A stretch of DNA of 64,000 nt from Eledone cirrhosa (Eukaryota). Each line of letters starts with the position of its first letter. Position 1 is the first letter of the stretch. Position numbers and translations under genes: made by a program. Positions 15,923 through 23,177 of this stretch are shown here, piece by piece. The notes beneath the pieces were generated by a model. That model was not told the DNA's origin. It saw only the letters and a program-made list of their open reading frames with translations, and ran no database searches. The stretch lies in the NCBI GenBank assembly GCA_964016885.1, contig OZ024742.1, positions 271,312,001-271,376,000 of the forward strand. Reading direction: 5' to 3'.

Positions 15923-16710
15923 TGTAAATGAAGTAATTCCGTCGCAAATGTCCAGGAAAAAAGAGTGCTCTGTGTAAGTTACAGAGCTTATTAGTTGTGT
16001 AATAAAGAATATAAGATAATTATTTCATTTACCAGTGGTTACTTGAAAGCAACCAAAATTGCTTTCCTTCATCAGAATGAAAAAATCCAGGTGTCTTTAT
16101 TGACAGTGGATCTGAAAAACAAAAATATAACAGATATGAAAGTGAGGCTGGAGGAAAAAAAAAGGAGGGGGGTAGAAGAATAAATAAGAATATATAACAA
16201 CACACACGTACACACACACACGCACACACACTCACATATACACATATATACATATATATATATGCATATTTACATGCATATATACATATATATATACACA
16301 CATATACACATATATATGTATATATCCATACATAAACACACCAACACATATATATATATATATATATATATATATATATATATATATATATATATATATA
16401 TATACATATATATATATATATATATATATATATATATATATACATATATATATACATATATACACATATATATATATATACATGCACACATATATATATA
16501 TATACATATATATATATATATATATATATATATATATACATACACATACACATACATACACACACATACATACACATATATATACACACATGCATACGTA
16601 CTCACATATAAAAGAATACATATATACACACACATATAAGGATAAATAATCATAGTAGGCCGTCACATACAAATAAGCAAATAAAAAATAAGGATTAAGA
16701 AAATAAATAA
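15923..16710 (-). mobile_element. Left arm of a fold-back PLE with microsatellite-rich 3' UTR; the right arm is 16725-16982 plus 22762-23177
   Basis: Reverse complement matches 16725-16982 and then 22762-23177. Carries a hammerhead at 16023-16082 and a tail at 15923-15990. Confidence 0.85.
16023..16082 (-). ncRNA. Type I hammerhead ribozyme (GAAA mutated to GTAA)
   Basis: TTTCATT CTGATGA AGGAAAGCAAT..GTTGCTTTCAA GTAA CCACTGG TA AATGAAA on the minus strand. Confidence 0.7.
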
Positions 16711-17166
16711 TATATATATATATATATTTTGTTAATCCTTATTTTTATTTGCTCATTTGTATGTGGCGGCATACTATGTTTATTTATCCTTATTTGTGTG
16801 TGTGCATTTATATCCTTTTATATGTAAGTACGGATGCATGTGTGTATATATATGTGTATGTAGGTGTATGTGTATGTATATATATATATATATATATATG
16901 TGTGTGTGTGTGCATGTATATATATATATATATATATATATATATGTATATATATATATATATATATATATATATATATATAGTATTAGTTATACTATTT
17001 ATGGTTATGTAAACACAAAACCTTAAGCAGTTGTAAGTATTTTACACACACCCTAAATAGTGGTAGGCAGTAATGTATTACTACCTTATTACCAGTAAGT
17101 TAAGTAGCTCAATGTAAAAACATCAGATGATTTACAGAGCAGTTATATGAAATATAAGAATCAAAC

Positions 17167-19161
17167 TTAGAAGATATTAATGTAGAGGGTTATAATATAG
17201 TGTCTAAACTAGGACTACAGAGGCATACACAACCTTTCACTCCGAACCCCCCTAGATTCTCTCTGAAGGACCATAAGGAGAACTTCATCAGCAACCCCAC
17301 GATAAGACTTATCTGCCCTTCCAAGTCCGACATTGGTATTATCAGCAAGAAGATTTTGGATAAAATCATCCCACAAATTAAACACAAGATACACCTTAAA
17401 CAATGGGGAAATACGGGTGAAGTAATTGAATGGTTTAAGGATATCAAGAATAATAAGAACAAAAAATTTATTCAATTTGATATCAATTCATACTACACCT
17501 CTATTTCCCCTATCCTATTAAATAAGGCACTTATCATGGCCATGACCAATAGCGACCTGACTAGAGCCCAGGTTGATGTCATCCTTGCGGCCCGTAAAAC
17601 CATAATCACCTTCGAGGACCAACTATGGACACGCAAGGATACGCACAACAACTTCGACATAACCATGGGATCTAGTGACTCGGCGCAGGTCACTGATTTG
17701 GTCGGCCTATACCTCCTCAATGAAATCCATAAAGACCTCCCTTACCTCAACGGTGGTTTGTACCGCGATGATGCACTTCTACTCATAGAATATAAAAAAT
17801 TTAATATAGAAAGAACTAGAAAACAACTGCATAAGACATTCAAAAACTTTAACCTTAGTATCACCATGGACAAAAACACTAAAAATGTTAACTTCCTAGA
17901 CGCCACACTATACCTAGACTCAAAAATATATACACCTTTCCATAAGCCTAATGAGAAACTTATTTACGTAGATACCAAGTCTAATCACCCTAGATCAATA
18001 TTAAACTCTATCTCTAAGGGGGTGTCCAATAGAATCTCTAGTCTGTCCTATGACGCAAACATATTTAGCAAAAACTCACAATATTACAATCAAGCATTAG
18101 CTAGCTCCGGCCATAATATAGAAATAGAGTTCCTACCTAAGAAAACACATAGCTACAACATCATCTCGCACAACATGTCCATGAGGAAATCTAATAATAG
18201 GAATAGCAACCACAAGTACACCAAAGCGGAGGGTGCCACCGGAAGTAACCATTACCATGGAAACTACTGTGAGGCCTTAGGAGGAAGCAACACACCAAAC
18301 ACTAAAAGCAAAAATAGAAGAAGAAATAATACATTTTTCAACCCTCCTTTCAACCTAAATGTCTCCACCAACATACCTAGGGCTTTCTTCTCACTACTAG
18401 ATAAAAACTTCCCTCTAGGACACAAGTACCACAACCTCTTAAACAAAAACACCATTAAAATCTCATACTCTACGACGCCTAACTTAGCATACCACATAGC
18501 TAGCAGCAATAATAGTAAAATTAGTTCTTACTTCCAACAAACAAAATCACAACGGGATGCAAACCCTCTAAATACCACTGTAGCAAGCAACAATAGCAAC
18601 GGCAGTAACAATAGAAATAACACTAGTATAAGTAATAACACCAGGGTTGTCAACCTGAACACCCAAAATCCTATATCCACCACACAGACTTCCGCATTGC
18701 ATTATAACCAGCGGACTAACGCACAGAATAATTGTAACTGTAGAGCTAATAGAACCTGCCCCTTAGATAAAAAATGCCTAACCAAGGATGTCATATACTC
18801 ATGCACAGTCACGACTAATAACTCTTCAGAAACCTATGTAGGCTCCACTTCTAACTGCTTCAAAATTAGATATAACTCGCACATCCACTCGTTCAAAAAG
18901 CACAGCCTAGCCAACTCCACCTCACTTTCTAGCTACATACACTATCTAAAATCTAAAAATAAACCATACACACTCAAATGGGAAGTGATAGGCAGCGCGA
19001 CCTCGTACAAACCACCTAATAAATTCTGTAACCTCTGTATACTAGAGACACACAATATTATCTTCTCCAACCGTAACCTACTTAACAAAAAATCTGAGGT
19101 GTTTGCAACTTGCCAACACCGCCTCAGACATTCCTTCCAAAACTTTAAGCCCTATATATAG
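17167..19161 (+). CDS. PLE reverse transcriptase with C-terminal GIY-YIG endonuclease (5'-truncated, uninterrupted; possibly Hydra-clade PLE)
   Basis: RT motifs LKDHKENF, RLICP, FIQFDINSYY, FDITMGS, GLYRDD, NFLDATL, SNHP. Endonuclease CNC..CPL..CL..VIY..TYVG..FKIRY..H and C-terminal CNLC..E..LNKKSE..C.H. The frame is open from the truncation junction at 17167, so the GTG at 17200 is not a true start. Confidence 0.93.
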   Translation, partial: LEDINVEGYNIVSKLGLQRHTQPFTPNPPRFSLKDHKENFISNPTIRLICPSKSDIGIISKKILDKIIPQIKHKIHLKQWGNTGEVIEWFKDIKNNKNKKFIQFDINSYYTSISPILLNKALIMAMTNSDLTRAQVDVILAARKTIITFEDQLWTRKDTHNNFDITMGSSDSAQVTDLVGLYLLNEIHKDLPYLNGGLYRDDALLLIEYKKFNIERTRKQLHKTFKNFNLSITMDKNTKNVNFLDATLYLDSKIYTPFHKPNEKLIYVDTKSNHPRSILNSISKGVSNRISSLSYDANIFSKNSQYYNQALASSGHNIEIEFLPKKTHSYNIISHNMSMRKSNNRNSNHKYTKAEGATGSNHYHGNYCEALGGSNTPNTKSKNRRRNNTFFNPPFNLNVSTNIPRAFFSLLDKNFPLGHKYHNLLNKNTIKISYSTTPNLAYHIASSNNSKISSYFQQTKSQRDANPLNTTVASNNSNGSNNRNNTSISNNTRVVNLNTQNPISTTQTSALHYNQRTNAQNNCNCRANRTCPLDKKCLTKDVIYSCTVTTNNSSETYVGSTSNCFKIRYNSHIHSFKKHSLANSTSLSSYIHYLKSKNKPYTLKWEVIGSATSYKPPNKFCNLCILETHNIIFSNRNLLNKKSEVFATCQHRLRHSFQNFKPYI

Positions 19162-22325: not shown

Positions 22326-22340
22326 ATATATATATATATA

Positions 22341-22761
22341 TATATTATAAAGAAAACGAAAAATCAGTGATGCATGTGATCTTAGTTTATTTCGTGTTAC
22401 AAATGTTTCGCCGGCATGTAGCTCGAGTCATGGTCCTTGTATGGATCTGGCTGATTCTACTTCTGCGGGTTCTTTCAGACACGGGTGTTATGTCCGGATC
22501 AAATTTATGAGCGATAAAATTTGCTCCGAACATAACACCCGTGTCAGAAAGAACCAACAGAAGTAGAATCAGCCTGATCCATACAAGGACCATGACTGGA
22601 GCTACATGACGGCGAAACATTTGTAACATGAAATAGACTAAGTCCAGATGCATCACTGATTTTTCGTTTTCTTTATAATATATACACTCTACTCTGATGA
22701 ATATCGAGTGCTAATTTTGGCATACCGCCTACGGAAGCACCATAGCTACCACTATACTCAA
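22341..22761. mobile_element. Older fold-back PLE pLTR end with half hammerhead and tail
   Basis: Imperfect palindrome 22341-22684 centred near 22511. GAAA CATTTG TA at 22614-22625 (stem III and GUA site; the 5' core is lost by truncation). Tail 22685-22761. Confidence 0.75.
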
Positions 22762-23177
22762 ATATATATATATATGTGTTGGTGTGTTTATGTATGGACA
22801 TATATATATATATATATATATATATATATGTATATATGTTTATATATGTGTCTGTGTATATATATGTGTATATATGCGTGTATATATGTATATATATATA
22901 TATGTATATATGTGTGTATATGTGAGTGTGTATGCGTGTGGGCGTGCGTGTGTGTACGTGTGTGTTGTTATATATTCTTATTTATTCCCCCCCCCCCGCC
23001 CTTTTTTTTTTCATCCAGCCTCACTTTCACGTCTATTATATTTTTGTTTTTCAAATCCACTGTCAAAAAATGGCACCAGGATTTTTTTCATTCTGATGAA
23101 TGAAAATAATTTTGGTTGCTTTCAAGAAACCACTGGTAAATGAAATAATTATCTTATGTTGTTTATTACATAACTAA
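22762..23177 (+). mobile_element. Distal part of the right arm of the 15923-16710 fold-back PLE
   Basis: Resumes at ATGTGTTGGTGTGTTTATGTATGGA, matching the reverse complement of 16321-16350, and continues through the hammerhead. Confidence 0.85.
23086..23145 (+). ncRNA. Type I hammerhead ribozyme
   Basis: TTTCATT CTGATGA ... GAAA CCACTGG TA AATGAAA; 7-bp stem I, GUA site. Confidence 0.78.

Follow-up and report, generated by a model that had tools for sequence, protein, structure and literature searches.

An inverted PLE pair split by four younger PLE-type insertions, and a proposed (TA)n-primed mechanism, in Eledone cirrhosa

In the 64,000-nt stretch of the Eledone cirrhosa genome analysed here (the window), we found an old inverted pair of a Penelope-like element (PLE) of family A. 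Four younger PLE-type insertions, B to E, lie side by side within its microsatellite-rich 3' UTR and split it. We propose that such insertions arise by reverse transcription primed on (TA)n, and we give the combined reading a probability of about 0.8. Since Hydra PLEs have been reported to target (TA)n (Craig et al. 2021, PMC8557442), a nest of this kind is to be expected, and the loop by which elements carry their own targets looks small when counted. The main interest lies in family B, in which about 1,000 ends without a tail preserve a record of how reverse transcription started. Among the mechanistic questions that Craig et al. (PMC8557442) name as open are the microsatellite bias of PLEs and the formation of inverted repeats. 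Because the RTs of PLEs have been described as a sister group to those of telomerase, the countable repeat-addition signature in the intact, (TA)n-specific B makes both questions testable with one protein and one RNA.

The left arm of A is mirrored by a right arm in two pieces (Table 1), as the initial annotation had described, except that the right arm begins at 16729, just past the central (TA)9, and not at 16725. The gap between the pieces falls within the internal (TA)n of A, as had been proposed, between two family anchors that adjoin each other in the left arm and in copies with no interruption. It holds four distinct inserts, which we recovered where they had been annotated (16983-20706, 20827-21655, 21768-22325 and 22341-22761), with (TA)n between each and a hammerhead-like motif in every one by motif scan and direct reading. 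These inserts had been called unrelated, which is correct for DNA (local scores of 17-31, no similarity) and wrong for protein, as the A, B, C and D ORFs show homology to one another (about 40-50% aa over the aligned parts). We also dropped the label of a Russian doll, because B to E adjoin in series within one internal (TA)n of the A right arm, none inside another, and the nest has a depth of two levels. The arms of A are 11% apart, compared with 8% for E, 2% for C and 1% for D, and the B of the window is 98.8-99.8% identical to other B copies, an age order in which A is older than its inserts. Both arms of A are truncated within a few bases of one same family position; they have only three minor variants in common, each found in other copies too, so the arms could be two separate events. 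A sixth hammerhead element, F, absent from the earlier reading, adjoins A from outside, across (TA)14(TG)17, and is matched at 93-94% identity by 3 loci within a 400-kb random sample of the genome.

Table 1. Features of the nest and its flanks, in positions of the window
Feature	Position	Strand	Details
Element F	15700..15860	+	HHR-like motif 15760-15815; short PLE-like fragment outside the nest
(TA)14(TG)17, left target flank of A	15861..15922	.	
A left arm	15923..16710	-	5'-truncated 3' UTR; microsatellite region about 16200-16590; hammerhead about 16023-16083, GAAA mutated; 68-nt tail 15923-15990
(TA)9, centre of A palindrome	16711..16728	.	
A right arm, 5' part	16729..16982	+	runs up to internal (TA)n
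B inverted arm	16983..17165	-	last 22 nt of pLTR plus 161-nt tail; 99-100% to pLTR-ORF junction of full-length copies
B ORF	17158..19161	+	667/832 aa; 5'-truncated RT-linker-GIY-YIG-type protein, Hydra-clade motifs
B 3' UTR/pLTR	19162..20693	+	hammerhead about 20603-20652, core CCGAAGA; nearly microsatellite-free
B terminal repeats	20694..20711	+	two additional head-to-tail copies of last 9 nt of pLTR; tail-less junction
(TA)~60, B/C spacer	20712..20827	.	
Insert C	20828..21655	+	inverted arm 20828-21055 (minus), main arm to 21569, tail 21570-21655; hammerheads 20870-20934 (-) and 21462-21525 (+)
(TA)56, C/D spacer	21656..21767	.	
Insert D	21768..22325	+	213-nt palindrome, centre 21978/21979, 99%; tail 22192-22325; hammerhead 21979-22125, stem II long
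(TA)10, D/E spacer	22326..22345	.	
Insert E	22341..22761	+	arms 22339-22506 (minus) and 22517-22684, 92%; non-canonical hammerhead-like motif; tail 22685-22761
A right arm, 3' part	22762..23177	+	remaining microsatellite region; hammerhead 23086-23145; no tail
(TA)14, right target flank of A	23178..23206	.	

Comparison with other A copies established that the internal (TA)n/(TG)n, taken in the initial annotation to belong to the element, is indeed part of family A and is sited in its 3' UTR. This UTR is ~2.2 kb long and about half of it is microsatellite; at locus L290, 47% of it is alternating purine-pyrimidine, with 15 TA runs. The ORF of A was recovered in a decayed state. An ORF upstream of A at L297 was rejected as that of A, because it belongs to another PLE inserted in an upstream A tract.

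Family B is very young. At least 68 copies are 99-100% identical in protein, and in most of them an 832-aa frame is open; it carries RT motifs and a C-terminal endonuclease-like domain (GIY-YIG-type). A Pfam search of the B ORF gave no real match; among the 120 homologues listed, one had PF01541 and one PF00078. The arms of C are 98% identical. Autonomous Hydra-type copies of C and D lie at L302 and L301, respectively, and ORFs were found for both families. E is PLE-like, without a detected ORF within the searched flanks: none lies upstream in 30 + 14 E loci with 1.5-kb flanks, and it may sit further upstream.

By the motifs of their predicted proteins, B, C and D are Hydra-clade PLEs, and A probably is one too. 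B, C and D resemble the published Hydra clade (PMC8557442) in having a single ORF with a C-terminal endonuclease, a motif of the RW[K/R] type (RWR here), DKT in place of DKG, a CxCX5C linker, and CxxC and CxH around E and N residues, the last read by eye; CCHH is absent. For A, the region of RWR and DKT was not recovered, and decayed copies show only the CPL end of the linker. The PLE structure is also present, with pLTR-ORF-pLTR in tandem, an inverted 5'-truncated copy and a tail at one end. We rejected a Naiad/Chlamys identity, which would entail an N-terminal endonuclease and no canonical hammerhead, because the endonuclease is C-terminal here and hammerheads are present.

The hammerhead motif and its stems are present in A, C and D, with core variants in B (U4 changed to C) and E (one additional base, family-wide). 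A scan of 400 kb of random genome returned 47 hammerhead-like motifs, compared with 1-2 in shuffles. An Rfam search gave no hammerhead; its matches were to miRNAs, all below threshold and falling on palindromes and microsatellites. Free-energy folding did not recover the full hammerhead shape. For hammerheads with a short palindromic stem III, the full shape is not expected from free folding (PMC4209133).

We propose the following mechanism for the chain. B to E were likely added one after another, with the (TA)n left on both sides by each insertion serving as the site for the next. The endonuclease of the element would cut both (TA)n strands, and the junction sequences suggest that the freed TA ends may pair with short UA motifs in the element RNA, one at the end of the pLTR and the other at the end of the tail, both sites being fixed. 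Of the 5 element ends checked, all 5 coincide with TA in the family sequence where it continues. If both strands prime reverse transcription, the product would be an inverted pair in which one end, and only one, is tailed; one tail per pair was found in 5/5 pairs in the window and in 7/7 B pairs assigned from their coordinates. The family B enzyme likely realigns on the same RNA segment and re-adds a 9-nt unit up to four times before elongation. Telomerase adds repeats in a comparable manner, by re-using a short RNA segment, with a variable number of units.

The evidence for this last step comes from B ends genome-wide. About 287 of 993 tail-less ends (about 29%) carry 1-4 additional copies of the last 9 nt. 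By count, 294 ends have at least one added unit (up to 7 of the 294 being tailed), 76 have at least two, and 706 have none. In read-through copies, an added unit was found in 7/1248 (7 vs 1241; Fisher p about 1e-101). The genomic signature is telomerase-like in that the template is flanked by a realignment repeat and the number of units varies only at the priming junction. The register had exceptions, with a 7-nt unit in 2/20 and one run of four added units that runs on into the tail. We conclude that the added 9-nt units likely reflect telomerase-like re-use of the template when the RT was primed on (TA)n.

Two alternatives would remove part of this account. The order A-B-C-D-E-A could be an assembly join across long (TA)n, which we consider very improbable: although two of the tracts are longer than 110 bp and none of the short-read contigs listed for four runs bridges the E|A junction (an uninformative result), both halves of the A right arm resume in register with the family, the ages fall in the expected order, and comparable insertion chains occur in the A tract at L007, L011, L013, L021 and L030. 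The nest of A split by B to E is very probably genuine. The added 9-nt units, in turn, could have arisen after insertion by DNA replication slippage beside the TA tract rather than by reverse transcription, a possibility raised by minisatellite-like duplications next to TA elsewhere (L077, L098 and L318) and by added units in seven tailed copies. However, the same local 9-nt direct repeat is present in the read-through copies, yet added units are about 50 times rarer there (0.6% vs 29%); the register stays at 9 nt, and 0/39 zero-extra ends show the unit after a longer TA spacer; and B, at about 99.5% identity, is too young for much later change. We therefore regard replication slippage as unlikely.

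A further set of alternatives concerns the source of the (TA)n. The true 3' ends of B to E lie at (TA)n in 106/108 cases, and (TA)n makes up roughly 5% of this genome. The initial annotation had suggested that tracts inside PLE 3' UTRs feed further insertion, and in its strongest form this idea makes them the main source of targets, with a feedback that drives microsatellite abundance and repeat clustering genome-wide. Per copy the idea holds: microsatellite-rich UTR-like regions occur in 3/5 families (A, D and E), 13 of the 29 long A copies have foreign insertions in the tract, the D copies at L107 and L301 are interrupted in their own internal tract, and Penelope in shrimp offers a precedent for SSR carriage (PMC7878876). 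As a major driver it does poorly. None of the 106 other B to E ends lies inside an A tract, and most A copies are 5'-truncated before reaching it, with 0/9 A loci in a random sample extending that far. Among 868 random TA blocks, 31 were internal to an element, in a count that overlooks internal tracts with low-complexity flanks, whereas 422 adjoined a recurring element end. A rough empty-site test, in which left boundaries were unreliable for most C and D copies, gave paired flanks at 5/66 loci, each from a single other locus. Young-insertion flanks lay next to other hammerhead elements in 11/106 cases, compared with 53/644 sides of random TA blocks and 21/600 random windows; no excess clustering was seen. 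B and C, whose UTRs are without microsatellites, stack equally well, and a simpler loop, with (TA)n remaining at either side of every insertion, accounts for the chain without an element-borne target. The dominant role is thus improbable; element-borne tracts appear to be real landing pads that account for a small share of all targets. A search of the openly accessible literature found no description of carried-target feedback in PLEs. Insertion might instead lengthen (TA)n, through 2-nt RT slippage on a UA motif or a staggered cut with fill-in, and so make targets at element ends. We hold this as a tentative possibility. The A tract has a median of 54.5 TA units in 8 interrupted copies and 30 in 13 uninterrupted ones (p=0.002), with about 150 pure units in the right arm of the window; a B junction has, on one side, a median of 12 units, compared with 9 (length-weighted median) for random runs taken whole; and the 9-nt stutter shows that a junction can gain sequence. 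On the other hand, longer tracts are also bigger or better targets, which leaves cause and effect inseparable in these medians, the uninterrupted left arm of A already has 85 units, and TA blocks in this genome often slip at the DNA level. Rather doubtful is the broader, combined proposal that an active Hydra-clade PLE RT performs telomerase-style repeat addition (cut (TA)n end paired with a UA motif, 9-nt template, realignment) and that (TA)n grows at each insertion when this slip occurs on bare UA motifs, so that elements would make their own targets and help build the (TA)n fraction of the genome.

The elements described here share with the published Hydra clade (PMC8557442) hammerheads, insertion at (TA)n, an inverted 5'-truncated copy and a tail at one end. 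They differ in unit length, generally <3 kb there and about 4.2 kb for B (repeat period) and about 3.8 kb for C (hammerhead to hammerhead) here, the excess being UTR and low-complexity linker, and in their tails, 30-40 nt there and 68-161 nt here. The microsatellite-rich UTRs of A, D and E also set them apart from that clade as published. The words 'slippage', 'microhomology' and 'nested' are absent from the main text of PMC8557442, and the openly accessible literature that we searched gave no description of template slippage or repeat addition by a PLE. In penaeid shrimp, TEs including Penelope carry SSRs that move with the element, as here, and later lengthen (Yuan et al. 2021, PMC7878876); in that account of SSR carriage, the carried SSR is not treated as a target for later insertions. 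The Poseidon element PAc of Anolis, the one PLE known to have been examined in vitro, cuts and extends both strands, and two RT start sites define its tail (Frangieh et al. 2024, PMC11167929), features that match our proposal. PAc starts at RNA sites without homology to the cut DNA, whereas the ends here coincide with TA in the RNA; given the non-homologous starts of PAc, the case for pairing-based priming is one read from sequence. Repeated terminal units are a feature of B and a further difference from PAc. Template slippage at 3' repeats is known for the LINEs UnaL2 and I factor (reviewed in PMC3747384). In LINE slippage and in telomerase, as proposed for B, one short stretch of RNA is copied more than once as reverse transcription begins, which leaves a variable number of terminal units. 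Unlike either system, B has a single unit in its RNA, bounded by two UA motifs and located at an internal start site, and its repeat addition is low (0-4 units), in a class of RT described as sister to those of telomerase.

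The host of the nest, the old Penelope-like element (PLE) A, has a right arm whose break falls inside a TA run; in the left arm, that run links two short family anchors. Four PLE-type insertions (B, C, D, and E) occupy the break, with about 60, 56, 10, and 7 TA units separating B from C, C from D, and D from E, and following E, respectively. The initial annotation had described a Russian-doll nest: the split of A and the four inserts at its TA run were confirmed, but the inserts stand in series rather than as a Russian doll. B, C, D, and E have no DNA similarity to one another, and A through E share one build, in which two 5'-truncated 3' ends form an inverted pair and only one of them bears an extra tail. 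A type I hammerhead-like motif, its stem III short and palindromic, is present in each; the core of B has U4 changed to C, and that of E has an extra base, which is kept across the E family. The U4 to C hammerhead (window 20603-20652) is retained by the young, intact B family in all copies viewed. B is the youngest insert, or equal to D, and the ages of A through E agree with nesting. Many inverted E pairs elsewhere in the genome (L112-L139) turn back at one short natural hairpin immediately 5' to the hammerhead, suggesting a snap-back origin of the inverted arm, and the centre of some E pairs holds short repeated pieces.

Features of the nest and of the rest of the window
Feature	Position	Tail (nt)	Arm divergence (%)	Remarks
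Minisatellite	3681-4643			30 copies of 32 bp
Palindrome	5421-5961 and 7505-7725			centred on TA, related copy 2 kb off
Large palindrome	7729-12099			two 2.1-kb arms (99%) with motifs resembling a hammerhead core at 7839 (-) and 11989 (+); contains 70-mers and internal tandem units of ~510 bp; probably a further young insertion of PLE type
Element F	15700-15860			sixth hammerhead-bearing element; adjoins A externally across a TA/TG tract; abundant family
Host A	15923-23177	68	11	left arm 15923-16710 (minus) aligns with 16729-16982, then 22762-23177
Insert B	16983-20711	161		
Insert C	20828-21655	about 86	2	
Insert D	21768-22325	about 134	1	
Insert E	22341-22761	77	8	
Inverted pair	25640-27261 / 46409-48137			75%
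Broken RT-type frame	48305-49120 (+)			presumably LINE-like, by motifs
Broken RT-type frame	53207-55644 (-)			presumably LINE-like, by motifs
Broken RT-type frame	62539-63333 (+)			presumably PLE-like, by motifs
Short SINE-like repeat	7210, 27524, 44503, 56335, 58200			five copies

The B frame in the window encodes the C-terminal 667 residues of an 832-aa protein, and the left piece of B is the inverted end of the pLTR (the 3' UTR/terminal repeat) plus the tail. All 68 scored B copies were 99-100% identical at the amino acid level, with the full frame open in most, and DNA identity at 19 other loci was 98.8-99.8%. Of the 120 homologues listed for the B protein, a single one is named, from Argonauta hians (39%). 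Complete pLTR-ORF-pLTR copies of C and D were found (in L302 and L301), A has a decayed ORF 2.2 kb upstream of its hammerhead in L290, and no ORF was found for E among 44 loci searched. RWR, DKT, and a CxCX5C linker occur in the B, C, and D proteins, and CxxC/CxH flanks their endonuclease residues E and N; all of these are listed as Hydra-clade marks (PMC8557442). Based on these motifs, B, C, and D are putative members of this clade, nearly all families of which target (TA)n (PMC8557442, section 11).

The claim that A bears its own (TA)n target was borne out. Alternating purine-pyrimidine makes up 47% of the A UTR in L290, which contains 15 TA runs. We took the 39 best matches to the A 3' end, dropped 10 lacking a 5' anchor, and scored 29, with L028 judged by eye. 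Foreign DNA lay inside the microsatellite region in 13 of the 29, with at least two pieces in at least 5, and comprised fragments of hammerhead PLEs, SINE-like fragments ending in (GAT)n, and others. A neighbouring 54-bp plain segment, too short to be a strong control, was unbroken in 21/21 copies with both anchors, and L013 had an apparent insert in it. Interrupted tracts had more TA units (median 54.5 vs 30, p = 0.002), but this may only mean that long tracts are hit more often. The upstream regions of D and E are also microsatellite-rich (31% and 41%), compared with only 2-3% for B and C. The same SINE-like insert recurs in the (TTA)n of A, upstream of the TA region, in L002, L016, L018, L027, and L028; either this tract is a further landing pad or the copies share an ancestral insertion.

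For the genomic background (3.0 Gb), we sampled 99 ten-kb stretches at round coordinates (L171-L269, 989 kb in total), in which 5.3% of bases fell in (TA)n runs of at least 12 bp. TA content of the window was below that of the sample (39 TA runs). Our own scan detected 99 hammerhead-like motifs in the sample, 47 of them in the first 400 kb vs 1-2 in shuffles, and all 7 detected in the window lie within 15.7-23.2 kb. Extrapolation of the sample density would give ~300,000 motifs genome-wide; L183:245-3387 is a retrozyme-like tandem of eleven hammerheads with a 310-bp period.

Carried tracts had also been proposed to feed microsatellite abundance and repeat clustering, but in the loci sampled they did not prove to be the main source of targets. 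At 116 other B-E loci, (TA)n lay within 60 nt of the 3' end in 106, the remainder being internal pLTR-ORF junctions (8) and (CA)n (2), and an A anchor was near none of the 106. None of the 9 A 3' ends in the random megabase extended into the tract, with one stray anchor match found separately. Among 868 TA blocks with both flanks, only 31 had paired recurring flanks and are element-internal, a share that is probably understated because the test is blind to rare families and to tracts with low-complexity flanks. The others had two recurring flanks never found together (128), one recurring flank (294), or none (415), and at equal sensitivity element ends were ~14 times commoner than internal tracts. 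Stacking also occurs outside A tracts, with F beside A and D beside E-type elements at L086 and L123; insertions can stack without a carried target because TA remains on either side of every insertion. We conclude that feedback through carried targets exists but seems small, and that the nest illustrates known behaviour well. For PLEs, the literature already describes (TA)n targeting, inverted arms, tails, and hammerheads (PMC8557442; PMC4209133), and Penelope SSR carriage has been published for shrimp (PMC7878876). An octopus repeat annotation gives active PLEs, and the text consulted mentions neither Hydra nor nesting (PMC13282606).

The part worth pursuing is the repeated ends of the young B family. 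At the tail-less end of the window's B copy, the last 9 nt of the pLTR are repeated twice more, and 6 of the first 10 tail-less B ends viewed had one or two extra units. Genome-wide, exact-pattern matching counted 706 ends without an extra unit, 294 with one or more (no more than 7 of these tailed), and, using a slightly shorter anchor, 76 with at least two, so that a second extra unit follows the first in about 26% of cases. We viewed 20 of the 76 multi-unit ends and found a maximum of four extra units, two ends with a 7-nt slip, and one running into the tail. A unit following a longer TA spacer was seen in 0 of 39 zero-extra ends read (40 fetched). It is possible that the extra units reflect DNA slippage following insertion. 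Slippage, however, is predicted to strike copies that read through into the tail as well, and of these 1241 had one unit and 7 had more, giving extra units in 29% of tail-less vs 0.6% of read-through copies (p about 1e-101). The B RNA sequence has a single unit between two UA motifs 9 nt apart, which would enable a newly made DNA end to re-pair at the start site. Repeat addition during copying would thus proceed by the new end re-pairing there once the unit is copied. This layout of the B RNA is that of a telomerase template. Template slippage has been proposed for LINE 3' repeats (PMC3747384), and we found no report of template slippage or repeat addition by PLEs in our literature search or in the main text of PMC8557442.

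All five ends examined (B pLTR and tail, C pLTR and tail, and D tail) sit at a TA of the family sequence that continues past them, and this suggests priming through pairing with cut (TA)n: the cut end would pair with element RNA at a TA site and prime reverse transcription. A single tail per inverted pair was found in 5/5 pairs in the window and in 7/7 positionally matched B pairs. A Poseidon PLE has been shown in vitro to cut both strands and extend them, with two internal RNA start sites setting the tail (PMC11167929). Two-strand extension with two starts fits the one-tail pairs seen here, whereas, unlike Poseidon, the ends here coincide with TA in the family sequence.
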